64,000 bases of DNA from Escherichia coli (GCF_013122565.1 NZ_CP053258.1); one strand, 5' to 3'; shown: positions 1 to 35,410, numbered from the stretch's first letter. Translations and numbers: made by a program. The notes: generated by a model not told the origin, from the letters alone.

Positions 1-499
1 GGGAAATACGTTTGTCTTCCCCATGGCGGGTTATTCCAAAAAAATAAAAACCGTGGCGCAAATAAAAGAAGGCGCTACAGTGGCGATCCCCAACGACCCG
101 ACCAACCTTGGTCGCGCGCTTTTACTGTTGCAAAAAGAGAAGCTAATTACTCTGAAAGAGGGAAAAGGGTTATTACCTACCGCGCTGGATATAACCGATA
201 ATCCTCGTCATTTGCAGATTATGGAACTCGAGGGGGCGCAGCTCCCGCGCGTACTGGATGATCCCAAAGTTGATGTGGCGATTATTAGCACCACTTACAT
301 TCAGCAGACCGGACTTTCTCCGGTGCACGACAGCGTATTTATTGAAGATAAAAATTCGCCGTATGTGAACATCCTGGTGGCACGGGAAGATAATAAGAAT
401 GCAGAAAACGTGAAGGAATTTCTGCAATCTTATCAATCACCCGAAGTCGCAAAAGCGGCAGAAACCATCTTTAACGGTGGCGCGGTGCCTGGCTGGTAA
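1..499 (+). CDS. nlpA: NlpA/MetQ-family lipoprotein, C-terminal part (5' end lies outside the window)
   Basis: Open frame running in from the window edge to a stop at 499; the 158-aa tail resembles the C-terminal domain of NlpA/MetQ substrate-binding lipoproteins; convergent with yicL as in K-12. Confidence 0.7.
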   Translation, partial: GNTFVFPMAGYSKKIKTVAQIKEGATVAIPNDPTNLGRALLLLQKEKLITLKEGKGLLPTALDITDNPRHLQIMELEGAQLPRVLDDPKVDVAIISTTYIQQTGLSPVHDSVFIEDKNSPYVNILVAREDNKNAENVKEFLQSYQSPEVAKAAETIFNGGAVPGW

Positions 500-502
500 T
501 TC

Positions 503-1426
503 TCACTCATGCCGCGCTGGACGATTTATTTTTCTGGCGCGGCGACGGGAATCCATTGAAATCAAAATTACCGATGACAGAATCAGCAGCGTTCCCAGCC
601 AGTCCGGCAATGTGAACGTGATCCCCAGCAACAGCAAAGAGAGCAGCGCGCTACTTAATGGTTCCGCACAGCTTAAAATGCTGGCTTTTGGACCGCCAAT
701 TAATTGTGCTCCTTTCAGGTACAGGCTAAATGTCAGAGATGTACCAATGACCACCAAATAAAAAAACGCCAGAATCAAACTGCCGTTAACGACAAAGTTT
801 GTTCCTTGTCTGGCATAAAAAGGCAACAGAATCAGACCGCCAATCAGCATACTCCAGCCGACGACTGGTAACGTGCCATAGCGGGCAATCAGCGTTGAGG
901 GATAGGTGGTATAGAATGCAGCAGCAAATGCCGAGGCAATGCCCCAGAATAACGCGGCAGGAGAGATCGATAATGATGTCGGATTACCGTGTGTCACCAA
1001 TAAAAAAGTCCCGACCAGCGATGTCAAAATAGCGCAAAAAACCAGAATGCCCGGGCGCGATTTACGTACCAGTGAGAACCAGGCGACGATAATCGTCGGT
1101 GAGAGGAATTGCAGCACCGTTGCCGTGGCTGCGTTCGATTTTTCGATGGTTAGCAAAAAAGTGAGCTGTACGGTTAGCGCGCCAACCACGGAAAAAATCA
1201 GCAGACTAAAGGCATCTTTGTGATTGTTAATAATAGAAAAGATTTTATCGCCATGAACAAATGACAGCGTCAGCAGAATCAAACCGGCGAATATCAAACG
1301 CGTCATAGTCAAAAACTGCGACGACATCTGGCTTTGCTCCATGATGTATTGCGCGCAGACCCCTGAACTTCCCCACAACACGGCGGCAATCAGAACGTTC
1401 AGCATCCCCTTTCTGGTGGAACCCAT
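503..1426 (-). CDS. yicL: EamA/DMT-family inner-membrane transporter
   Basis: 307-aa highly hydrophobic ORF, same length as K-12 YicL; position between nlpA and setC. Confidence 0.8.
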
Positions 1427-1536
1427 TTTTCCCTCTGCATACTGTTTTGTCGTTTATGTATGCAGGCATGATAGCAAAAATGGCGAGGATGGCTCTGTTT
1501 GCGCCACGCCGATTTTTCTTAGCCCAGACTGGTGAG

Positions 1537-2721
1537 CTAAATATCTTTAATAAACAGCAGGCAAATCATCGCAATACCCAACATCCCTATCGCCAGCCAG
1601 AACAACGCGTGGTAGCTCCAGATTTCAACCATAATTCCGTCAACAGAGCCGGCGATAATCCAGCCGACGCGTGAAGTATTTGCATATAACGTTGTCGCAG
1701 AGCCTATTTTTTCAGGCATCAGGTCCTGAAAATAAAGCATGCCGATACCACAGAGAATACCAAGGAAGATGGCATTTAGAATTTGCAATTCCAGCTCAAC
1801 TGCCGGAGTCGTCGCCATGAGTACGCTGGCGTAAAAACACATTCCACTCACGATAGCAATGAGCATTAATAGCCGCTTGCCAATACGTTTCATGTAATAG
1901 CCTGCGATTAACATCATCGGAATTTCCAGACCGGCAGCGATACCAATCATTTCTCCAGCCAGTTTATCGGTTAGATGCAGTTCATCAATAATAAATAGCG
2001 GCATATTTATCATGTAGAGATTATTCGCCGCCCACATCATTGAACAGACTACAAAAAGTAGCCGTGTATCCCGCTTTCTATGGATGGAGGGTAAAACTTC
2101 TACGGGTTGGGTAACAACAGGAATATTTCTTTGTATTGATGGCAAAAACAACCAGACTATCAGCCCGCAAATAACAAATGCGATGGCAGCGGTGAGATAC
2201 ATCACTTTAAAACTAAATCCCATTGCCAGCTCATAAGCGAGCGGTGGCCCGATAACCCAGGCAAGCGAGATCTGAGCACGTAAAAATGTACTGAACATGA
2301 CCGTCTCGCGGCCTGTTCTGTCAGCGTGTTCACGGGCGAGGGCGAACATTTGCGGGTTTGCGGTGGAAGCAAAACTACTCAGAAGTACGCCCGTTGAGAG
2401 GAGAATGAAGTAGTTGCGATTCCACGCAAAAAGCGTGCAGGCCAGCACTCCAAATAAGCAACATAGCAGAATCAGTAATTTACGGTCGCCTTGTTTATCG
2501 GAGTGCCTTGCCAAAAATTGACTGACCAGAATTCCCATAATAGCGCTACCGGTGAAGAAAAAACCTACCATTATAGGACGAGCTTTCAGTTCATCTGCGA
2601 GGAATATACTTAAGGTAGGAGTCTGGAGAGCGCCCGCAATACCCGTCAGAAAGGCGACAAGTAAAAATGCCGCGGCAGTGAGATCAAGTATTTTTGATGG
2701 AGTGGTAGCCGTTTTTTGCAT
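1537..2721 (-). CDS. setC: MFS sugar efflux transporter SetC
   Basis: 394-aa multi-TM ORF, same length as K-12 SetC; adjacent to selC. Confidence 0.8.
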   Translation of the reverse strand: MQKTATTPSKILDLTAAAFLLVAFLTGIAGALQTPTLSIFLADELKARPIMVGFFFTGSAIMGILVSQFLARHSDKQGDRKLLILLCCLFGVLACTLFAWNRNYFILLSTGVLLSSFASTANPQMFALAREHADRTGRETVMFSTFLRAQISLAWVIGPPLAYELAMGFSFKVMYLTAAIAFVICGLIVWLFLPSIQRNIPVVTQPVEVLPSIHRKRDTRLLFVVCSMMWAANNLYMINMPLFIIDELHLTDKLAGEMIGIAAGLEIPMMLIAGYYMKRIGKRLLMLIAIVSGMCFYASVLMATTPAVELELQILNAIFLGILCGIGMLYFQDLMPEKIGSATTLYANTSRVGWIIAGSVDGIMVEIWSYHALFWLAIGMLGIAMICLLFIKDI

Positions 2722-3106
2722 TCTTCTGAATCACCGGGCGACAAAATATAACTGAGTTACAAATAAGTACCAGTCGAATGAGTATTGTATTAAGAATTTT
2801 TGAGTATCGCTGATACAACCAGAAAGCAATGCTAGCGCAATATTATAGGGCCAGCAATTGAGATTATTAGCAAAAGCATGTTAAGAATTAATTACCGAAT
2901 TTATATATTAATTATAGTAAGGCAATGAGCTATTTTTGATAGTAAAAATAAAACAAGTTGATTTGATATATTAAATGAACAAATTAATCTTGATGGCAGT
3001 CTGATTATTGGTGAGGTTTATAGGTCAGTTTTTTTCGCCAGCTGTTAAAGGAATAGAATAGTCGTATAAAAAAGGGTGTTCTGGAGCGTGTAAAACAACA
3101 TCTTCA

Positions 3107-3330
3107 CCTTAATGGCGATACAGTTGGCTGAGAGTCATCAGGGGGGCAAATCACCTGCAAATAAACACGGCGCAGACTGGCGCGAGTATCGCGGATGCGT
3201 TCGAGGACAGAAGAACCGACAGGCGGATTCTTCAGCCGCTCATCGTCCATCACAAAACCTTTGATCAGGTATTCCTGAAGCCGATTGAATATTGAGCAGT
3301 AGAAAATATCTGGATTGACAGTATTACAAG
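3107..3330 (-). pseudogene. Stop-free remnant of a RhuM-family (virulence-protein-like) gene directly 3' of selC
   Basis: Minus-strand frame translates without stops to ...[49 protein letters not shown]...*; the LxEYLIKGF-DDERLKN and ERIRD-R-S motifs resemble the central region of RhuM-family proteins (recalled, not searched); no start codon, under 60 aa from the first Met. Confidence 0.35.
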
Positions 3331-3358
3331 GGATTGGAGAACGTCAGGAGAGGCATTT

Positions 3359-3453
3359 TGGCGGAAGATCACAGGAGTCGAACCTGCCCGGGACCGCTGG
3401 CGGCCCCAACTGGATTTGAAGTCCAGCCGCCTCACCGGAGACGACGATCTTCC
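3359..3453 (-). tRNA. selC: tRNA-Sec (selenocysteine, anticodon UCA)
   Basis: Reverse complement is GGAAGATCGTCGTCTCCGGTGAGGCGGCTGGACTTCAAATCCAGTTGGGGCCGCCAGCGGTCCCGGGCAGGTTCGACTCCTGTGATCTTCCGCCA, 95 nt, with the long variable arm and encoded CCA typical of E. coli selC. Confidence 0.95.
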
Positions 3454-3745
3454 GCGCCTCGATTGCTACATGGAGGCGGGGCGCATTATAGCTACTTCCT
3501 TGAGTTTCTACATCCCCCAGATCAGTTTTTTCCGCCTAATACACGCAGCGTATTATCACGAAAGCATTATAGTTCATATAAAATTCATATTTTTCAATGA
3601 TATATAAGCGGAATTAACGCTACCACGATCACATAAAACAAGAATCATAAATTAATAACCAGATATCGGAATATTCGCTCTCACAGGGATGGTTTACAAA
3701 ATGCGTTATCGGTCTCAGCACCCCTATAGCATCAAGGAAAAGCAG

Positions 3746-5128
3746 ATGAAGAGTGAAGTGTTGTCCGTTAAAGAGAAAATTGGTTATGGCATGGGAGACG
3801 CCGCCAGCCACATTATTTTCGATAACGTAATGTTATATATGATGTTCTTTTATACCGATATTTTTGGCATTCCTGCCGGATTTGTCGGAACTATGTTTTT
3901 GGTCGCTCGTGCACTGGATGCGATTTCCGATCCTTGCATGGGGTTGTTGGCCGATCGAACGCGCTCTCGCTGGGGTAAATTTCGTCCGTGGGTACTGTTT
4001 GGCGCACTGCCATTCGGGATCGTCTGTGTACTGGCCTATAGCACGCCAGATCTCAGTATGAACGGAAAAATGATTTATGCAGCAATTACTTACACCCTAC
4101 TTACCTTACTTTATACCGTCGTCAATATCCCTTACTGCGCATTGGGTGGTGTAATCACCAATGACCCGACTCAGCGTATCTCGCTGCAATCCTGGCGTTT
4201 TGTGCTGGCGACCGCGGGAGGCATGCTTTCTACTGTTCTGATGATGCCACTGGTTAATTTAATTGGTGGTGATAATAAACCACTCGGTTTCCAGGGCGGT
4301 ATCGCGGTCCTTTCCGTGGTGGCATTTATGATGCTGGCATTTTGTTTCTTCACCACTAAAGAACGCGTTGAAGCACCACCTACAACGACGTCTATGCGGG
4401 AAGATTTACGTGATATCTGGCAAAACGACCAGTGGCGGATTGTCGGTTTACTAACCATTTTCAATATCCTGGCGGTGTGCGTACGCGGTGGAGCGATGAT
4501 GTATTACGTCACATGGATTTTGGGTACGCCGGAAGTGTTTGTCGCTTTTCTCACCACTTATTGCGTGGGTAACCTGATTGGTTCCGCACTGGCAAAACCG
4601 CTGACCGACTGGAAATGTAAAGTCACTATCTTCTGGTGGACGAACGCCCTGCTCGCAGTGATTAGCATCGCGATGTTCTTTGTTCCCATGCAGGCCAGCA
4701 TCACTATGTTTGTCTTCATCTTCGTGATTGGTGTGTTGCATCAACTGGTGACACCTATCCAGTGGGTAATGATGTCCGATACCGTCGACTACGGCGAGTG
4801 GTGCAATGGTAAACGCCTGACCGGGATCAGTTTTGCTGGCACGCTGTTTGTGCTCAAACTGGGGTTGGCCTTCGGCGGCGCTCTTATCGGCTGGATGCTG
4901 GCTTATGGCGGATATGATGCGGCAGAAAAAGCGCAGAACAGCGCCACGATTAGCATCATTATCGCGCTATTCACGATTGTTCCGGCGATCTGTTATTTGC
5001 TGAGCGCGATTATCGCTAAACGCTACTACTCACTCACGACGCACAATCTGAAAACCGTTATGGAACAGCTGGCTCAGGGTAAACGCCGTTGCCAGCAACA
5101 ATTCACCTCTCAAGAAGTGCAGAACTAA
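3746..5128 (+). CDS. yicJ: MFS glycoside-pentoside-hexuronide:cation symporter family transporter
   Basis: ORF with multiple TM segments; ATG at 3746 gives 460 aa (K-12 YicJ length); immediately upstream of yicI. Confidence 0.85.
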   Translation: MKSEVLSVKEKIGYGMGDAASHIIFDNVMLYMMFFYTDIFGIPAGFVGTMFLVARALDAISDPCMGLLADRTRSRWGKFRPWVLFGALPFGIVCVLAYSTPDLSMNGKMIYAAITYTLLTLLYTVVNIPYCALGGVITNDPTQRISLQSWRFVLATAGGMLSTVLMMPLVNLIGGDNKPLGFQGGIAVLSVVAFMMLAFCFFTTKERVEAPPTTTSMREDLRDIWQNDQWRIVGLLTIFNILAVCVRGGAMMYYVTWILGTPEVFVAFLTTYCVGNLIGSALAKPLTDWKCKVTIFWWTNALLAVISIAMFFVPMQASITMFVFIFVIGVLHQLVTPIQWVMMSDTVDYGEWCNGKRLTGISFAGTLFVLKLGLAFGGALIGWMLAYGGYDAAEKAQNSATISIIIALFTIVPAICYLLSAIIAKRYYSLTTHNLKTVMEQLAQGKRRCQQQFTSQEVQN

Positions 5129-5137
5129 GGAACGGCA

Positions 5138-7456
5138 ATGAAAATTAGCGATGGAAACTGGTTGATTCAACCTGGCCTCAATTTGATTCACCCGCTTCAG
5201 GTATTCGAGGTTGAACAGCAGGGTAATGAAATGGTGGTCTATGCTGCCCCCCGTGATGTACGTGAACGTACCTGGCAGCTTGACACGCCTTTATTTACGC
5301 TGCGCTTTTTCTCCCCACAGGAAGGTATTGTCGGGGTGCGGATTGAGCATTTTCAGGGGGCGCTGAATAACGGCCCTCATTACCCGCTCAATATTTTGCA
5401 GGACGTGAAGGTCACAATCGAAAACACAGAACGTTATGCTGAGTTTAAAAGTGGCAACTTAAGCGCGCGTGTCAGCAAAGGTGAGTTCTGGTCACTCGAT
5501 TTTCTGCGCAACGGTGAACGTATTACCGGTAGTCAGGTGAAAAATAATGGCTACGTGCAGGACACGAATAATCAACGAAATTATATGTTTGAGCGGCTTG
5601 ATCTTGGCGTTGGCGAAACAGTTTATGGTCTGGGAGAGCGCTTCACTGCCCTGGTGCGCAATGGTCAGACGGTAGAGACCTGGAACCGGGACGGCGGCAC
5701 AAGTACTGAACAGGCGTATAAAAATATCCCGTTCTATATGACTAACCGTGGTTATGGGGTACTGGTCAATCATCCCCAATGCGTCTCTTTTGAAGTGGGA
5801 TCGGAGAAAGTCTCCAAAGTGCAGTTCAGCGTTGAGAGTGAATATCTCGAATACTTTGTTATCGACGGTCCGACGCCGAAAGCGGTACTTGATCGTTATA
5901 CCCGTTTTACTGGTCGTCCGGCGCTGCCGCCCGCATGGTCCTTCGGCCTGTGGCTAACCACTTCATTTACCACCAACTACGACGAAGCGACGGTAAACAG
6001 CTTTATCGATGGTATGGCGGAACGCAATCTGCCGCTGCATGTTTTCCACTTTGACTGTTTCTGGATGAAAGCCTTCCAGTGGTGCGATTTTGAGTGGGAC
6101 CCGCTGACTTTCCCGGACCCGGAAGGGATGATCCGCCGCCTGAAAGCGAAAGGGCTGAAAATCTGCGTCTGGATTAACCCCTATATTGGGCAAAAATCCC
6201 CCGTTTTTAAAGAGTTACAAGAGAAAGGTTATTTACTCAAACGCCCGGACGGCTCGCTGTGGCAGTGGGATAAATGGCAGCCAGGTCTGGCGATTTATGA
6301 CTTTACCAATCCGGATGCCTGCAAATGGTACGCCGACAAACTGAAAGGTCTGGTCGTGATGGGCGTTGATTGCTTTAAGACCGACTTTGGCGAACGTATT
6401 CCAACCGATGTTCAATGGTTTGACGGTTCCGATCCGCAGAAAATGCATAACCATTATGCGTACATCTACAACGAACTGGTGTGGAACGTGCTCAAGGACA
6501 CCGTTGGTGAGGAAGAAGCTGTCTTGTTTGCCCGCTCGGCCTCCGTCGGTGCGCAGAAATTCCCGGTACACTGGGGTGGCGACTGTTACGCTAACTACGA
6601 ATCAATGGCGGAAAGCCTGCGCGGTGGTTTGTCTATTGGCCTTTCAGGTTTTGGCTTCTGGAGCCACGATATCGGCGGCTTTGAAAATACCGCGCCGGCA
6701 CACGTTTACAAACGCTGGTGCGCGTTTGGTTTGCTCTCCAGCCATAGCCGTTTACATGGCAGCAAATCTTATCGTGTGCCGTGGGCCTATGATGATGAGT
6801 CCTGTGATGTGGTGCGCTTCTTCACGCAACTGAAATGCCGCATGATGCCTTATCTGTATCGTGAAGCTGCGCGTGCGAATGCGCGGGGTACGCCGATGAT
6901 GCGGGCCATGATGATGGAGTTCCCGGACGATCCGGCTTGTGATTACCTTGACCGTCAATACATGTTAGGCGACAACGTGATGGTTGCGCCGGTGTTCACT
7001 GAAGCGGGCGATGTGCAGTTCTACTTGCCGGAAGGTCGCTGGACACACCTGTGGCACAACGATGAGCTCGACGGTAGTCGCTGGCATAAACAGCAGCACA
7101 GCTTCCTGAGTCTGCCCATTTATGTGCGTGATAACACCCTACTGGCGCTGGGCAATAACGATCAACGTCCCGATTACGCGTGGCACGAAGGCACGGCATT
7201 CCACCTCTTTAATCTGCAAGACGGGCATGAAGCCGTCTGTGAAGTGCCCGCTGCTGACGGTTCGGTGATCTTTACACTAAAAGCAGCACGTACTGGCAAC
7301 ACGATTACTGTGACTGGTGCGGGCGAGGCGAAGAACTGGACGCTGTGCTTGCGCAATGTTGTGAAGGTAAATGGTCTGCAAGGCGGTTCGCAGGCTGAAA
7401 GTGAGCAGGGGCTGGTGGTGAAGCCTCAAGGGAATGCGCTGACAATTACGTTGTAA
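5138..7456 (+). CDS. yicI: alpha-xylosidase (glycoside hydrolase family 31)
   Basis: 772-aa ORF, same length as K-12 YicI; GH31-like catalytic region (WIDMNE-like / [10 protein letters not shown] motifs). Confidence 0.9.
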
Positions 7457-7470
7457 TCTATTGATGGAAT

Positions 7471-7498
7471 GCCGGGTACGTCTGAGTCGTACCCGGCG
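7471..7498. terminator. Hairpin between convergent yicI and yicH (likely bidirectional terminator)
   Basis: Inverted repeat gccgggtacg-tctgagt-cgtacccggc in the 52-bp convergent intergenic gap. Confidence 0.5.
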
Positions 7499-7508
7499 AG
7501 ATTGATGT

Positions 7509-9218
7509 TTACTGCACCGGCTCCGTCGACGTAACTTCGCCACTGGAAACGACGCCCGCATTCATGGTTTGAGTCACTTGCTGCTTTGCGGCGTTCACGG
7601 CATGCAATTGCCCGCTAACCGTAGGTTTCAACGGGACATTGGCCTGAATATCGCCACTGGCGGTAAGCTGAATATTGCCGTCGCCAGTCAACGGTAATTC
7701 AGGCCATCCCCACTGTTGCAAAATATTCACCGGCACACCGCGTCCATTCAGGCTGATATGGGTCTGACGTTGTGGCGTTTGTGAAATACTGGCGGTGGCT
7801 TCCAGAATGCCTTTTTCAGTAAATGCACTCAGTTCGCTGATATTCACCGTGCTGCTGTTGGCGGTTAGCGCCAGCGATGGGCGACGAATATCAACACGAT
7901 TAAACGTCGCGGCGGCGGCATTCAGATTCGCCGAGCCACTCCAGACGCCCCATTTATGATCGGTAACCAGCGTCAGATTGGCACCGTAACCATCGAGCGC
8001 GGTGAGCTGCCACGGGAAGTCAGGGTCGATATCAATGATCAGATTGCGGCTGGCGCTAAATCTCTTCAGTTGCAGGCTGTTTAACCAGCCGGGTGTCGTT
8101 TCCATCCACAACTGTTGCCAGTTTTTCGGCAAGGTATATTCCAGCCCGGCAATTGCCGCATCATCAAGGATCAACGTTTTCCCGTCACGCAGCCAGTTCC
8201 CTGACGTTCTGACCATGCCCCCTTCCCAGCGGCTGGTGAACTGGCGCAGCGCTACGCCCTGCGGGGAAAATTCCGCGTTTATAATCGGGTCAAATAAATG
8301 CAGCGAACCATAAATGAACTCGCTGGCATTCATCGACAGTTTGCCTTCCTGTGTCTGCCAGTCATCTTTACTAAAGGTCATGTTGCGCAAGCTGAGATCG
8401 AGGTCGGTCACCGCCCAGTCCGGACCTTGCAGACGTGCGTCGATGACTTCCAGGCGACCAATCTGCAACGATGGGACAGAGCGTAATGGCGCAAAGAAGT
8501 CGGTTAGCGATTTTTCGCTTTGTAGACGGATATCCGCCATGCGCAGATTTTCCACTTGCCAGCTGCCGTCGGCGTTACGCTGCGCGTTTCCGGTTAATGT
8601 CCCGCGGGCGATGTCGGCACCCAGGTTAGTCAGCGTAACGCGATCGTTATCAATACTGCATTCAATCAGTACATTGGTGGCAGGAACATCATTGAGCGAA
8701 AGCGATCCGGCACTAAACTGAATCTGCGCCTTCGTACCCAGCACTTTACCGGCTTCTGGTGACCACGGAACCACGCCGCCATTTACCCGCTGCGCGCTCA
8801 GTTTCCATTCGCTATTCGGGCTATTAAACGCCATATCACGCAGTTGCAGACGATCGGCTTTGAACGGTAGCGGCGCGGTCTGGTCGGTGAGATTCAGCGT
8901 TCCGTTTTCCAGCAGGATGGTATCGACATGGCGTGGTTCGGTCAGTTGCCGACTGCTTAGCGCAATGTCGACACTTTTTGCCACCAGGGTCGCGGGCTGG
9001 CCATCACGGCCAAACGTGACGTTCTCCAGCACGATATGAGATGGCGCGGAAAAACGGTGATCCATCGCCCCGAAGGCCAGATGATAGTCGCTATTCTCGG
9101 AAACCCATGCGCTGATATGTTGTGCTCCCCAGCGAGTTTGCAGAAGAAAATAGAGGCCAGCGATCACCACTAACAGAGCGATGAGAATGTAGAGAAGCAG
9201 CTTCCCAATAAATTTCAT
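7509..9218 (-). CDS. yicH: AsmA-family outer-membrane assembly protein
   Basis: ATG at 9218 gives 569 aa (K-12 YicH length); N-terminal signal/TM segment MKFIGKLLLYILIALLVVIAGLYF. Confidence 0.85.
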   Translation of the reverse strand: MKFIGKLLLYILIALLVVIAGLYFLLQTRWGAQHISAWVSENSDYHLAFGAMDHRFSAPSHIVLENVTFGRDGQPATLVAKSVDIALSSRQLTEPRHVDTILLENGTLNLTDQTAPLPFKADRLQLRDMAFNSPNSEWKLSAQRVNGGVVPWSPEAGKVLGTKAQIQFSAGSLSLNDVPATNVLIECSIDNDRVTLTNLGADIARGTLTGNAQRNADGSWQVENLRMADIRLQSEKSLTDFFAPLRSVPSLQIGRLEVIDARLQGPDWAVTDLDLSLRNMTFSKDDWQTQEGKLSMNASEFIYGSLHLFDPIINAEFSPQGVALRQFTSRWEGGMVRTSGNWLRDGKTLILDDAAIAGLEYTLPKNWQQLWMETTPGWLNSLQLKRFSASRNLIIDIDPDFPWQLTALDGYGANLTLVTDHKWGVWSGSANLNAAAATFNRVDIRRPSLALTANSSTVNISELSAFTEKGILEATASISQTPQRQTHISLNGRGVPVNILQQWGWPELPLTGDGNIQLTASGDIQANVPLKPTVSGQLHAVNAAKQQVTQTMNAGVVSSGEVTSTEPVQ

Positions 9219-20956: not shown

Positions 20957-21781
20957 CTATTTCTTCTCTGTAATTTTTACACTGTTTTCCAACTGCTTGA
21001 TGCTGACCTGCGGGGTCGGCAACTCCTCAGGCATGGTTCCGCCAAGTTCCTGAATGGTTTGCCTCACCTTGCTACCCACGTCAAAGTGTGTGGTATTAGC
21101 TTGCTGTTTTGAATTCACGCCATCCCGCTTGAGTTTTTCTTCTGTTTGGGTAGCTCGAAAGAGATTAGCCGCCAGTTCTGTTGAACCCATATGATCCAGG
21201 ATCTTCTGACTCTTTTTCAGCCCCTTCCGTTGATGAATAGCTTTCTGATCTAATCCACCATACAGCCCCCGGTAACCATGATTCTGAAATATGGCGAAAT
21301 CGATAGCTGTCGCTACCCCAGCTTGCTGCGCTGCCTCAACCAATTGTTTGTTATGTTCTTTCAATTCATTTCTCAGAAAAAGACGCTTTTCGTCTTCACG
21401 AAGTTGCCTGAAAGCTTCATCGTCAGCCAGCTCCTGCCGTCGGGTCTGGATAGCAAAATAAGTTTGCCCTGCCGCAATAACCGGTTTCGCAGGGTCGCCG
21501 TTTTGTACTACCAGGTAACAGGCATAGCGGGAGAGATGAACATCTTCAAGTTCTCGTTGAGCCCCTGAACCTAATACAACCATTTTGGTGGTTTCAACGA
21601 AATGGTCAGATGCAGCTTGATTGCTAGCTTTGCACGCTTGAGTCGCGCGGGTCAGTACCTTTTGAAAATTGCGCCAGTCCCGATAATTCAGTAACGGTGC
21701 CAATTCTCTCGCTGACCAAAATTCTTGCCCTTCAGTGCCATAATGCCGTATCTCTTCAAAAGGTTGATGATGTTCGTTCAT
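20957..21781 (-). CDS. dinD: DNA-damage-inducible protein D
   Basis: ATG at 21781 gives 274 aa; LexA box in its upstream region. Confidence 0.8.
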   Translation of the reverse strand: MNEHHQPFEEIRHYGTEGQEFWSARELAPLLNYRDWRNFQKVLTRATQACKASNQAASDHFVETTKMVVLGSGAQRELEDVHLSRYACYLVVQNGDPAKPVIAAGQTYFAIQTRRQELADDEAFRQLREDEKRLFLRNELKEHNKQLVEAAQQAGVATAIDFAIFQNHGYRGLYGGLDQKAIHQRKGLKKSQKILDHMGSTELAANLFRATQTEEKLKRDGVNSKQQANTTHFDVGSKVRQTIQELGGTMPEELPTPQVSIKQLENSVKITEKK

Positions 21782-21824
21782 TGCCCACTCCATGTGATAT
21801 CGATTGCAAAGAAAGTAAATCTGT

Positions 21825-21844
21825 AACTGTATTTATATACAGTT
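21825..21844. promoter_or_regulatory. LexA operator (SOS box) upstream of dinD
   Basis: aaCTGTatttatatACAGtt fits CTGT-N8-ACAG; an extra CTGT half-site lies just 5' (21821-21824). Confidence 0.7.
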
Positions 21845-22001
21845 ATGAGTATCTCACGTTCTCAGTGTGCTGGGCAAAAAGACATCGCAAAATCTGGAGC
21901 AGGCACGCAAAACAGAATTGAAGTTGCGGGGAAGAAAAATGCCGCTCTGTTTGAGTGGGCGGCATTTGTGAAGGCTGAAAAGTAAGAATTGGCGTTACGA
22001 G

Positions 22002-29237: not shown

Positions 29238-31002
<1,765 letters not shown>

Positions 31003-31326
31003 AGTAAATAGCTGACTTATGGATGTGCTGGGGATTCTATGTATTTAGCTGTGGCTTTACCATTACTTTTCCCGTTTTTGACTTAAATAGCAATTTACCC
31101 GCCAATTCTTGCTGAACATCTATACTTTTTTTGTATTTTTATGCGATTCATTGATTTCTGCAGTACGTGCAGGAAGGAATCGCAGAGCAACAGTAAAAGA
31201 ATATGGTCACTAATGATTTTATTTGATTGATTTCTTTATTGAAAATCAACAATATGCTTAAAAATCATTCGGGTCGGATTGCCGCGAAAGAAGTGATACA
31301 CTAGCGCGTCAATATCAGTGCGGTAT

Positions 31327-31365
31327 CAGTATTCAGGTAGCTGTTGAGCCTGGGGCGGTAGCGTG
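31327..31365 (+). promoter_or_regulatory. JUMPStart element containing the ops site (RfaH recruitment) in the waaQ leader
   Basis: cagtattcaggtagctgttgagcctggGGCGGTAGCGTG; the 12-nt ops consensus GGCGGTAGCGTG is at 31354-31365. Confidence 0.7.
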
Positions 31366-31438
31366 CTTTTTCTGCTTCACCTTAATCGGATAATCTCAAC
31401 AAAAAGAGTTACTTGTGGATAAGCCATTTCGAAGAATT

Positions 31439-32473
31439 TTGCTCATTAAGATGCGTTTTCATGGGGATATGTTATTGACTACTCCCGTCATTAGTTCGCT
31501 GAAAAAAAATTACCCTGACGCAAAAATCGATGTGCTGCTTTATCAGGACACCATCCCGATCCTGTCTGAAAATCCAGAGATTAACGCGCTCTACGGCATA
31601 AAAAATAAAAAAGCAAAAGCCTCAGAAAAAATTGCCAACTTTTTTCATCTCATCAAGGTATTACGTGCCAATAAGTATGACCTTATCGTCAATCTTACCG
31701 ATCAATGGATGGTTGCTATACTGGTTCGCTTATTAAATGCCCGTGTGAAAATTTCCCAGGATTATCATCATCGGCAGTCTGCTTTTTGGCGTAAAAGTTT
31801 CACCCATTTGGTGCCGTTGCAGGGTGGAAATGTGGTGGAAAGTAACTTATCCGTGCTGACACCATTGGGACTTGATTCGTTGGTGAAGCAGACAACCATG
31901 AGTTACCCGCCTGCAAGCTGGAAACGTATGCGTCGCGAACTTGATCACGCTGGTGTTGGACAAAATTATGTGGTTATCCAACCTACGGCGCGGCAAATCT
32001 TCAAATGCTGGGACAACGCCAAGTTTTCCGCTGTGATTGATGCCTTACATGCTCGTGGTTATGAAGTCGTTCTGACGTCCGGCCCAGATAAAGACGATCT
32101 GGCCTGCGTCAATGAAATTGCGCAGGGATGCCAGACGCCACCAGTAACGGCCCTGGCTGGAAAGGTGACCTTCCCGGAACTTGGTGCGTTAATCGATCAT
32201 GCGCAGCTGTTTATTGGCGTTGATTCCGCACCGGCGCATATTGCCGCTGCAGTTAATACGCCGCTGATATCGCTGTTTGGTGCGACAGACCATATTTTCT
32301 GGCGTCCCTGGTCAAATAACATGATTCAATTCTGGGCGGGAGATTATCGGGAAATGCCAACGCGCGATCAGCGTGACCGAAATGAGATGTATCTTTCGGT
32401 TATTCCGGCGGCAGATGTCATTGCTGCTGTCGATAAATTACTGCCCTCCTCCACGACAGGTACGTCGTTATGA
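31439..32473 (+). CDS. waaQ: LPS heptosyltransferase III (GT9)
   Basis: Frame opens at a GTG at 31415 (352 aa); the TTG at 31439 gives 344 aa, matching my recollection of the K-12 WaaQ length; start is uncertain. Confidence 0.8.
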   Translation: MLIKMRFHGDMLLTTPVISSLKKNYPDAKIDVLLYQDTIPILSENPEINALYGIKNKKAKASEKIANFFHLIKVLRANKYDLIVNLTDQWMVAILVRLLNARVKISQDYHHRQSAFWRKSFTHLVPLQGGNVVESNLSVLTPLGLDSLVKQTTMSYPPASWKRMRRELDHAGVGQNYVVIQPTARQIFKCWDNAKFSAVIDALHARGYEVVLTSGPDKDDLACVNEIAQGCQTPPVTALAGKVTFPELGALIDHAQLFIGVDSAPAHIAAAVNTPLISLFGATDHIFWRPWSNNMIQFWAGDYREMPTRDQRDRNEMYLSVIPAADVIAAVDKLLPSSTTGTSL

Positions 32474-33594
32474 TCGTTGCTTTTTGTTTATATAAATATT
32501 TTCCCTTTGGCGGTTTGCAGCGCGATTTTATGCGTATTGCTCAGACAGTCGCCGCCCGAGGTCATCATGTTCGGGTTTATACCCAGTCGTGGGAAGGCGA
32601 ATGCCCTGATGTATTTGAACTGATCAAAGTGCCGGTTAAATCGCATACCAATCACGGGCGCAATGCGGAGTATTTTGCCTGGGTGCAAAAACATTTACGC
32701 GAACATCCCGTCGATAAAGTCGTTGGATTCAACAAAATGCCGGGGCTGGACGTTTATTATGCCGCTGATGTTTGTTATGCCGAGAAAGTAGCGCAGGAAA
32801 AAGGCTTTTTCTATCGCCTGACGTCACGTTATCGCCATTATGCCGCCTTTGAGCGGGCAACCTTCGAACAGGGCAAGCCGACACAGCTGCTGATGCTGAC
32901 AGATAAGCAAATCGCCGATTTCCAGAAACATTATCAGACTGAAGCGGAGCGTTTTCATATTCTGCCACCGGGAATTTATCCTGATCGTAAATATAGCCAG
33001 CAGCCAGCTAATAGCCGTGAAATCTTCCGTAAGAAGAATGGAATAACCGAACAACAATATTTATTGTTGCAGGTCGGTTCAGACTTCACGCGTAAAGGTG
33101 TCGATCGTTCCATTGAAGCACTTGCTTCGTTACCGGATTCGCTGCGCCACAACACATTGCTATATGTTGTTGGGCAGGATAAACCGCGAAAATTTGAGGC
33201 GCTGGCAGAAAAACGCGGCGTGCGCAGTAATGTTCACTTCTTCTCGGGGCGCAACGATGTCTCGGAATTAATGGCGGCGGCGGATTTATTACTGCATCCT
33301 GCCTACCAGGAAGCTGCGGGAATTGTGCTGCTGGAAGCGATTACTGCAGGATTACCGGTACTAACAACTGCCGTTTGCGGCTATGCGCATTATATTGTCG
33401 ACGCCAATTGCGGCGAGGCTATTGCTGAGCCATTCCGCCAGGAAACATTGAATGAGATTTTACGCAAAGCGTTAACACAATCTTCATTGCGCCAGGCCTG
33501 GGCGGAAAATGCGCGACATTATGCTGATACACAAGATTTATACAGTCTGCCAGAGAAAGCGGCGGATATCATAACGGGTGGTCTGGATGGTTGA
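32470..33594 (+). CDS. waaG: LPS core glucosyltransferase I (GT4)
   Basis: 374-aa ORF; overlaps the waaQ stop. Confidence 0.9.
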
Positions 33595-34384
33595 ACTTAA
33601 AGAGCCGTTTGCCACGTTATGGCGCGGAAAAGATCCTTTTGAGGAAGTTAAAACTTTGCAGGGTGAGGTATTTCGTGAACTGGAAACTCGCCGTACTCTG
33701 CGCTTTGAAATGGCGGGCAAAAGCTATTTTCTCAAATGGCATCGCGGCACGACCCTGAAAGAGATAATCAAAAATTTACTCTCATTGCGGATGCCAGTAT
33801 TAGGCGCAGACCGCGAATGGAATGCGATTCATCGACTGCGGGATGTCGGCGTTGATACTATGTATGGGGTGGCATTTGGCGAAAAAGGCATGAATCCGCT
33901 GACCAGAACTTCATTTATTATTACCGAAGATCTGACACCAACCATAAGTCTGGAAGATTACTGTGCTGACTGGGCGACCAACCCACCAGATGTTCGCGTA
34001 AAGCGTATGCTTATTAAGCGTGTCGCGACGATGGTGCGCGATATGCATGCTGCGGGCATTAACCACCGTGACTGTTATATCTGTCATTTCCTGTTGCACT
34101 TGCCTTTTTCCGGTAAGGAAGAGGAGTTAAAAATTTCGGTAATTGACCTGCACCGGGCGCAGCTTCGCACGCGCGTTCCACGTCGTTGGCGGGATAAAGA
34201 TTTGATTGGTTTATATTTCTCATCAATGAATATTGGTCTGACGCAGAGAGATATCTGGCGATTTATGAAGGTTTATTTTGGGATGCCTTTACGCGATATT
34301 TATAGACTTGAGATTGATTTACTTAAAAAGGCAAGGATTAAAGCAGGAAAAATAGAAGCAAGAACAATAAGAAAAAACTTGTAA
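33587..34384 (+). CDS. waaP: LPS core heptose(I) kinase
   Basis: ATG at 33587 gives 265 aa starting [12 protein letters not shown]; kinase-like HRDCY motif. Confidence 0.9.
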
Positions 34385-34416
34385 ATAGTATTTTATTACA
34401 AAAAGGGATTCTAAAA

Positions 34417-35397
34417 TTGTTGAAATATAGAAACTTCGTTGCTAAGAAGAAAAATTTATACCAAAACGAAGTGTCGTATGTTAAAAATTTACATATTGCA
34501 CTATGCTTTGACCGTGAATTCATAATGCCAGCGGGTGTTGCATTATATTCAATTATATCCAACAATAGACATATTAACCTTCATTTTCACCTTCTTATAT
34601 CAGGCATAGAAGAAAAGGAGTGTTCAGCTTTTTACGAACTAGAAGGTCCTAATACATCAATATCTGTATATTATATAACTGATAAATTTGACATTAATCC
34701 GGATACATTAGTTCTTGGTATTCCTTTATCAACATGTTTACGTTTTTTAATCCCAGAAGTTATTGATGATAAAATAAATAAGATACTTTATCTTGACTGT
34801 GATGTCATATGTAATGGTCCTTTAGATGAACTGGTTGATTATAATTTAAATGCTGATATTGCATATGTAATTCCAGATTCGCCAGAAATGCAAGAACGTG
34901 TAAAAAAATTAGACTATGGCATTGAGTTTATTAATTATTTTAATGCCGGGGTTATGCTTATTAATACCAGCGAATGGAAAAAAAATAATATAACACAAAA
35001 AGCGTTAGAAAAGATCAACAGTGGAAAAGTATATAGGTATGCAGATCAGGATGTGCTCAATATTTTACTTAATGGACGAGTGCATTACCTTGATAAGAAG
35101 TACAATAATAAGACAACATTGTCAGTACGATGTGATGAAGAACAAAAAAACTTGCCCAACACAATTATAATGCATTATGTTACCCAGAATAAACCATGGT
35201 ACAAAATATTTAGAGCACAAAATTTTGATCATTATTTTTCAAATTCTCCTTGGAAGAACCATAAAAGAAATCTAGCTCCATCATCAAGTGAGATTAGGTT
35301 AAAGTCTAAAGTTTTTTGGCTAGAAGGAAAATATTGTAAAGCCATTTCTTATTATTATAAGTATTTACTTGTTAAATTATTTGGCTTAAAGATTTAG
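34417..35397 (+). CDS. waaS: GT8-family glycosyltransferase at the waaS position of a K-12-type core cluster
   Basis: Positionally equivalent to K-12 waaS; the protein shares the DxD region (LYLDCDVICNGPL), FNAGVMLIN, DQDVLN and KPW motifs with the downstream waaO and waaJ products; frame begins at TTG, first in-frame ATG is codon 37, so the start is uncertain. Confidence 0.6.
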   Translation: MLKYRNFVAKKKNLYQNEVSYVKNLHIALCFDREFIMPAGVALYSIISNNRHINLHFHLLISGIEEKECSAFYELEGPNTSISVYYITDKFDINPDTLVLGIPLSTCLRFLIPEVIDDKINKILYLDCDVICNGPLDELVDYNLNADIAYVIPDSPEMQERVKKLDYGIEFINYFNAGVMLINTSEWKKNNITQKALEKINSGKVYRYADQDVLNILLNGRVHYLDKKYNNKTTLSVRCDEEQKNLPNTIIMHYVTQNKPWYKIFRAQNFDHYFSNSPWKNHKRNLAPSSSEIRLKSKVFWLEGKYCKAISYYYKYLLVKLFGLKI

Positions 35398-35410
35398 CTG
35401 GAATGAAATT

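Follow-up and report, generated by a model that had tools for sequence, protein, structure and literature searches.

The stretch of Escherichia coli DNA analysed here (64,000 nucleotides of GCF_013122565.1, NZ_CP053258.1; referred to as the window) very probably carries a functional selC gene in the unoccupied hotspot configuration of K-12, with the eroded relic of a rhuM gene in the spacer between selC and setC. Gene order, spacing and sequence at the site are those of K-12, and neither an integrase, nor an insertion sequence, nor a foreign block is present, which bears out the first-pass annotation, where the site was described as unoccupied. The "empty" site itself would most likely be the eroded stump of an old element that had once been integrated at selC. 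The features on which this picture is based are given below, with coordinates counted from the first nucleotide of the window.

23-499, end of nlpA (ORF)
503-1426, minus strand, yicL (ORF)
1537-2721, minus strand, setC, MFS sugar efflux transporter of 394 amino acids (ORF, K-12 position)
2722-3103, no strand, AT-rich, setC-proximal part of the spacer, 31.7% GC (composition profile)
3119-3281, minus strand, rhuM pseudogene fragment, corresponding to yicT (b4653) of K-12 (tblastn, PF13310, annotation)
3282-3358, minus strand, 77-nt 3' flank of selC (blastn, alignment, shuffle test)
3359-3382, minus strand, integration core (attB), the last 24 nt of selC (SCU-316 breakpoint, published 24-bp repeat)
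3359-3453, minus strand, selC, tRNA-Sec with anticodon UCA (ARAGORN, Rfam, identity with K-12)
3454-3745, no strand, divergent intergenic region between selC and yicJ (sequence, K-12 annotation)

The selC Gene and Its Attachment Core

The sole tRNA gene of the window is that of tRNA-Sec at 3359-3453 on the minus strand, for which ARAGORN gives the anticodon as TCA. It matches the tRNA-Sec model RF01852 of Rfam at 83.8 bits and is the same as selC of K-12 at 95 of 95 nucleotides. In the intergenic region toward yicJ, a candidate -10 element of selC was picked out by eye, namely, the hexamer TATAAT at 3490-3485 of the minus strand, with GC-rich sequence after it; the promoter scan made no call at this hexamer. 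The longest ORF of yicJ starts at 3689 (479 amino acids), and the annotated K-12 start, located by tblastn of YicJ, corresponds to 3746 (460 amino acids). It was the longer ORF that had set the upper bound of the region 2722-3688, to which several of the comparisons below refer.

Elements of the P4 and CP4 type carry a copy of the tRNA 3' end, which their tyrosine integrases recombine with the selC core of the chromosome; the tRNA gene is thereby rebuilt, and a partial copy remains at the far junction of the insert. Since the 3' end of the tRNA gene is located at 3359, islands using selC would be expected toward lower coordinates. The core was placed at 3359-3382 because in E. coli SCU-316 the setC-side homology to the window stops at 3382, at the border between island DNA and a partial selC copy of 21 nt (TGGCGG-AGATCACAGGAGTCG). 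In agreement with this position, a selC direct repeat of 24 bp has been reported for an island at selC (PMC6174562).

In the window, the core is intact and present as a single copy. The search for a second selC 3' end marking an attR, which had been recommended in the first-pass annotation, was extended over all 64 kb, and a 26-mer with up to three mismatches as well as a 16-mer with up to two mismatches matched the tRNA gene alone. With the 22-nt core, an indel-tolerant search of the spacer and the 64 kb still returned 6-7 errors for the best match, and the best fuzzy match within the spacer (7 errors) looks like a product of chance. The repeat finder gave no relevant family for the selC 3' end in the window.

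Comparison with K-12 and Other E. coli Genomes

The gap between selC and setC, previously estimated at about 640 bp, measures 637 bp (2722-3358), compared with 636 bp in K-12 MG1655 (b3658, b4653, b3659), which has the order nlpA, yicL, setC, spacer, selC, yicJ, and yicI in common with the window. The proposed alignment of 2722-3688 with MG1655 extends from end to end at 98.0% identity, with 948 of the 967 positions matching and the differences amounting to 18 substitutions and one 1-nt indel. On the larger scale, the 64-kb window is collinear with K-12 from 3,839,673 to 3,777,039, except for gaps of about 1.1 kb in the waa cluster, 60 nt at 45.6 kb, and 2.8 kb at the end of the window. Each ORF in 1-8000 has its counterpart among the genes of K-12.

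A match to 2722-3688 is found in 5,424 of 5,426 complete E. coli genomes, and in 2,471 of the 5,426 the arrangement is contiguous and island-free, with "contiguous" denoting one place that covers at least 80% of the query 2722-3688. According to the first-pass annotation, an identical spacer in reference genomes without an island would mark this as the ordinary ancestral site, and this is essentially the case: as the near-identical spacer is present in island-free references including K-12, the locus represents the ordinary K-12 configuration. That configuration is known, and its pseudogene is already annotated (yicT, b4653; 'RhuM family protein, incomplete').

The characteristics of an unoccupied site are present throughout, namely, an intact tRNA-Sec gene with a single 3'-terminal core, yicJ upstream, and the spacer, setC, yicL, and nlpA downstream at the spacing of the reference. 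Those of an occupied site are absent, there being no tyrosine integrase beside the tRNA 3' end, no direct repeat of that end at a far junction, and no non-core block between the tRNA gene and the core flank. The only non-core trace in this interval is the 160-nt rhuM fragment, setC itself being accessory. A tblastn search with two selC-type integrases yielded no match at E<1e-3 in the 64 kb, and with the mismatch-tolerant and indel-tolerant searches likewise blank, the earlier impression that no integrase, transposase, or repeat of the tRNA end is visible still holds. That no island is located downstream of selC is concluded from the contiguity of the K-12 neighbours within the window, which extends just 3,358 nt past the tRNA 3' end. 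The site would still be free for integration, with a usable attB.

The best contig retrieved by an exact match to SetC, from a Logan assembly, is 99.4% identical; among the complete genomes the best matches reach 98.7-98.8%, with the spacer of E. coli FDAARGOS_943 the closest (98.8%). The FDAARGOS_943 genome is riddled with insertion sequences; its AT-rich spacer is interrupted by an IS1 flanked by a 9-bp target duplication (2921-2929 in the window), an IS5-family element splits setC, and yicJ and yicI are pseudogenes.

Occupied selC Sites and SPI-3

In genomes with an occupied selC, the 3' end of the tRNA gene is separated by 160-300 bp from a tyrosine integrase, and the far junction contains a 22-24-nt partial selC copy. 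In E. coli SCU-112, foreign genes follow a tyrosine recombinase that begins about 300 bp past the tRNA 3' end, while in E. coli 2017.09.02CC a P4-like satellite begins 163 bp past it, encoding an integrase, an AAA ATPase and an HNH endonuclease, Psu, Delta, and an Icd-like protein. In that satellite (locus 1-6840), the pair of AAA-family ATPase and HNH endonuclease adjoins the integrase and looks like a satellite-borne defence cassette. The sites of SCU-112, 2017.09.02CC, and SCU-316 have the tRNA gene, the 24-nt core, and upstream yicJ/yicI in common with the window, and many occupied sites have kept the K-12-type spacer including the rhuM fragment beyond the far junction. They differ in having an integrase, kilobases of cargo, and a far-end partial selC, none of which is present in the window.

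PAI I-536 and SHI-2 are integrated at selC, as is phiR73, a retronphage. A published list of selC occupants comprises LEE, SPI-3, LPA, the Tia locus, phiR73, and an island of CFT073 (PMC6174562). In SPI-3 of Salmonella, a rhuM homologue (STM3755) is located downstream of selC on the tRNA strand, like the window fragment, which exhibits 72.5% DNA identity to rhuM of S. Infantis. The SPI-3 layout used for comparison is selC ... rhuM STM3755, rmbA, misL, fidL, and marT; mgtCB also belongs to the gene set of this island, whose total size is about 17 kb. In SPI-3, however, rhuM is full-length, begins about 3 kb from selC, and is followed by a multi-kb island, whereas the window contains only about 160 nt of rhuM. 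The SPI-3 genes rmbA, misL, fidL, marT, and mgtCB do not occur downstream of selC in the window, as it is collinear with K-12 and contains no extra DNA.

The rhuM Remnant in the Spacer

The short coding-like remnant noted in the first-pass annotation is real. With the intact RhuM of E. coli AVS0713 (345 amino acids) as query, tblastn aligns residues 121 to about 170 to the window, with an 8-residue gap, at an E value of 2e-20 (a second E value for RhuM against the window is 1e-17), and the Pfam family PF13310 (Virulence_RhuM) is matched with an i-E of 1.5e-11, covering model positions 50-98 of 252. The fragment of about 160 nt corresponds to codons ~121-170 of the 345-amino acid protein, with an internal deletion of 8 codons. 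It is contained in a stop-to-stop frame on the minus strand (3104-3295) that is open and reads ...LQEYLIKGFVMDDERLKNPPVGSSVLERIRDTRASLRRVYL.... The K-12 fragment occupies the same position and differs in an internal stop flagged by PGAP. NC_000913 carries the annotation of yicT at this position, and the label 'RhuM family protein, incomplete' is the one given by PGAP at the same place in K-12-type genomes.

The profile match is significant, as expected of a RhuM family member, while a complete translatable gene is missing and the native start is gone as well. Because just 49 of the 252 Pfam positions are covered, both the K-12 and the window fragment are predicted to be incapable of encoding a functional RhuM. 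Over their best 69-75 nt (~3207-3281), K-12-type fragments are 95-99% identical to intact E. coli rhuM. Judged from its sequence, the remnant is a piece of the cargo-type gene rhuM and not of an integrase.

The 77-nt flank between the fragment and the tRNA gene (3282-3358) was found by blastn to be homologous to the leader preceding the rhuM start in Escherichia sp. E1V33, E. whittamii, and SCPM-O-B-8794; in the alignment of the window, this leader jumps straight to rhuM codon ~120. The first 15 nt of the flank (3344-3358) are common to the tRNA-proximal arm of SCU-112-type integrase islands. An interpretation of the entire flank as such an arm was rejected, as past these 15 nt the local alignments were no better than those of shuffled sequences for most islands.

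An 18-nt near-repeat is present at 3022-3039 and 3519-3536 (AGGTCAGTTTTTTTCGCC / AGATCAGTTTTTTCCGCC; 16/18 identical), with the copies 497 nt apart. It brackets selC and the rhuM fragment, and by a rough estimate for T-rich DNA its probability by chance is a few percent.

Intact rhuM at selC in Other Genomes

A 2.3-kb segment encoding full-length rhuM and a hypothetical gene of 166 amino acids is present in 844 of the 5,426 E. coli genomes (~15%). In the AVS0713-type genomes examined, this segment is located between selC and yicL, in place of setC and the AT-rich spacer, and the homology between AVS0713 and the window breaks at 1455/1456 and 3343/3344. The intact 345-amino acid RhuM of this type matches PF13310 with an E value of 5.7e-118. 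About 110 bp past the rhuM stop of AVS0713, a degenerate selC end (18 nt) plus 10 nt of flank is found, the aligned copy being GAGGCATTTTGGCG----ATCACAGGAGTCG. Similarly, selC of Pseudescherichia vulneris is followed by rhuM at +250 and by a selC repeat (20/22) at +1385. These rhuM-only islets comprise about 1.2-1.4 kb without an integrase (AVS0713 locus 5268-6486; P. vulneris +1 to +1406). Position and strand of rhuM in the islets are those of the window fragment. The islets, however, include an intact rhuM with the degenerate selC repeat after it, and in E. coli they occur in genomes devoid of setC, whereas in the window the start, the C-terminal half, and the repeat are lost.

The AVS0713 leader corresponds to the initial ~43 nt of the arm that SCU-112-type islands have next to the tRNA gene, and it is matched in E. 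albertii by the ~43 nt that directly follow selC. In E. albertii NBRC 107761, there follow an integrase pseudogene, representing residues 109-374 of the SCU-112-type integrase, and then the ribosome-binding site and gene of rhuM (+43 to +1650). The 11 kb preceding selC in this locus gave no homologue of YicJ or YicI.

Outside Escherichia, intact rhuM adjoins the 3' end of selC in Pseudescherichia, Enterobacter, Morganella, and Providencia, and rhuM fragments are found at selC in Hafnia, Erwinia, Photorhabdus, Xenorhabdus, and Kosakonia; repeat and integrase are both lacking from most rhuM loci of other genera. A rhuM cut to its first 14 codons is present in Escherichia sp. E1V33 and E. whittamii. 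E1V33, which alone of the loci with this stump is long enough to show the downstream gene, contains an ORF of 417 amino acids on the opposite strand after the stump (+190 to +1450), presumably encoding a FliB-like protein (lysine-N-methylase). Upstream of selC, yicJ is missing in E1V33 and yicI is just 319 nt away.

With regard to function, intact RhuM matches the PADLOC candidate defence family PDC-S05 (E 2.8e-173), while sequence searches of NCBIfam, PHROGs, and PDB returned no match for RhuM. RhuM has been proposed as a toxin domain in restriction-modification neighbourhoods (Anantharaman et al., PMC3710099). The gene rhuM may be regarded as a candidate single-gene anti-phage or toxin gene.

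The AT-Rich Stretch and setC

The strong AT bias that had been described for 2760-3060 amounts to 29.6% GC, against 49.4% for the whole window; the setC-proximal part of the spacer as a whole has 31.7% and setC, its downstream border, 45.8%. Of the 5,426 E. coli genomes, 3,718 (68.5%) possess setC at a coverage of at least 80%; AVS0713-type E. coli and Escherichia sp. E1V33 lack the gene. Among 120 selC loci of other Enterobacterales, many of them too short downstream to exclude setC, none yielded a SetC homologue.

The AT-rich stretch always accompanies setC. No gene was found in it and nothing is annotated there in K-12; Rfam gave no match at E<=1, and no repeats are present beyond short ones at chance level. 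Promoter-like sites number one, as opposed to 3.0 expected, and neither promoter- nor terminator-like sites are enriched. A mobile ancestry of the stretch was considered and rejected after blastn against plasmids and phages, which returned only mislabelled E. coli chromosome and Salmonella rhuM. The stretch of about 380 bp would most likely represent the upstream and promoter region of setC, and it may have arrived, or been retained, along with this accessory gene.

The selC-setC spacer of E. coli recurs at 97.6% identity in two database records of 'Campylobacter phage' (MG065686.1 and MG065691.1), and the PLSDB 'plasmids' NZ_OL790696.1, CP061233.1, and NZ_CP141089.1 (1-4.9 Mb) also carry it. 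All of these phage and plasmid records are probably contaminated or mislabelled.

Other Regions of the Window

Toward the end of the window, an ORF of 868 amino acids on the minus strand (61302-63908) is similar to a trimeric autotransporter adhesin in its repeated motifs and its YadA-like C-terminus. Within this ORF there is a 286-nt tandem duplication of 89% identity, with the repeats at 63141-63723, and the segment 61244-64000 has no counterpart in K-12 3,770,000-3,777,039. In the LPS core cluster, the waaQ-waaG-waaP end (31000-35400) is 75-80% identical to K-12, compared with 94-97% for the rest of the waa cluster and about 98% for its flanks, and 34294-35410 (~1.1 kb) remains unaligned; this region looks like a mosaic or recombined core-type locus. 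Identity to K-12 also drops to 88.5% in 21001-22000, which by K-12 coordinates belongs to the dinD-yicG region, against 97-99% in the neighbouring segments.

Origin of the rhuM Relic

In the first-pass annotation, past rather than present occupancy of the site had been suggested, on the grounds of the AT-rich composition and the coding-like remnant. The suggestion gains from the identification of the remnant as rhuM and from other genomes, while the AT-rich stretch does not constitute independent evidence. As neither a far-end repeat nor a trace of an integrase is present in the window, the case for past occupancy is built wholly on other genomes. An old integrase-rhuM element is suggested by the selC repeats past rhuM, the integrase pseudogene of E. 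albertii, and the match of the AVS0713 leader to the island arm. In the proposed scenario, a small element integrated at selC would have brought in an integrase together with rhuM, and the integrase would subsequently have been lost. In the K-12-type lineage, at least two deletions would then have removed rhuM codons 1-120, the codons after ~170, and the far-end repeat. The present-day loci would be fossils of this process, with rhuM intact but without integrase in B2-like E. coli, the integrase pseudogene kept in E. albertii, a 14-codon stump left in E. whittamii and E1V33, and an internal 50-codon fragment in the window and K-12. That the element pre-dates the diversification of Escherichia and was eroded lineage by lineage, with the interval from selC to yicL serving as a gene-replacement hotspot and setC as cargo, is given an even chance.

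Two other histories would lead to a similar locus. According to one of them, which is tentative, the rhuM fragment, the AT-rich stretch, and setC (~1456-3343) would together form a single old islet specific to E. coli, with setC as its cargo. The exact breaks of AVS0713-type homology at 1455/1456 and 3343/3344, with a different gene set between them, are consistent with such an islet, as are the replacement of setC by another gene between the rhuM stump and yicL in E1V33, the occurrence of setC in just 68.5% of E. coli and in none of the 120 Enterobacterales loci, and the low GC contents of setC (45.8%) and the spacer (31.7%). No att repeat or integrase bounds the segment, however, many of the outgroup loci are too short downstream to exclude setC, and homologous recombination between the flanks would yield the same pattern without any integration. 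According to the other history, which is rather unlikely, rhuM would be an old, vertically inherited neighbour of selC in the Enterobacterales that decayed in the K-12-type lineage, so that the site would never have been occupied. In its favour, many genera have rhuM, or pieces of it, immediately past the 3' end of selC and on the tRNA strand with no integrase present, most of these loci reveal no selC repeat, and RhuM identity to the E. coli protein (87% in E. albertii, 81% in Pseudescherichia, 79% in Enterobacter, 70-71% in Morganella and Providencia) ranks roughly with phylogeny and with the identity of YicJ and YicI. Against it speak the partial selC copy that closely follows rhuM in two genera and puts this gene within an integrated segment, and the integrase pseudogene between selC and rhuM in E. 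albertii along with the AVS0713 leader matching island arms. Furthermore, rhuM belongs to a candidate defence family typical of island cargo, and within E. coli its presence or absence goes with alternative gene sets.

A small non-canonical element, for instance an sRNA locus, a small gene for a toxin, or a transposable element of the miniature type, could also be imagined to be hidden in 2722-3103, in view of the low GC content (29.6-31.7% versus 49.4%), the lack of the stretch in E. coli without setC, and the IS1 insertion in one strain, FDAARGOS_943. This is highly improbable, considering that terminal inverted or direct repeats beyond chance, an Rfam match at E<=1, and an enrichment of promoter- and terminator-like sites are all absent, that the stretch has no copies elsewhere in E. 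coli genomes (median of one place per genome) and was not found in true plasmids or phages, and that the K-12 annotation, although listing small proteins such as yicU, is blank there.

Taken by itself, the selC locus of the window matters little and opens no new question. It provides the negative information that no LEE, PAI, SHI-2-like island, or P4-like satellite resides at selC in this strain and that the attachment core is intact. The comparison with other genomes has brought out rhuM as a widespread, selC-linked one-gene cassette, sometimes bounded by att sites, in a candidate defence family; this by-product is of modest use in studying defence islands and the erosion of tRNA hotspots.
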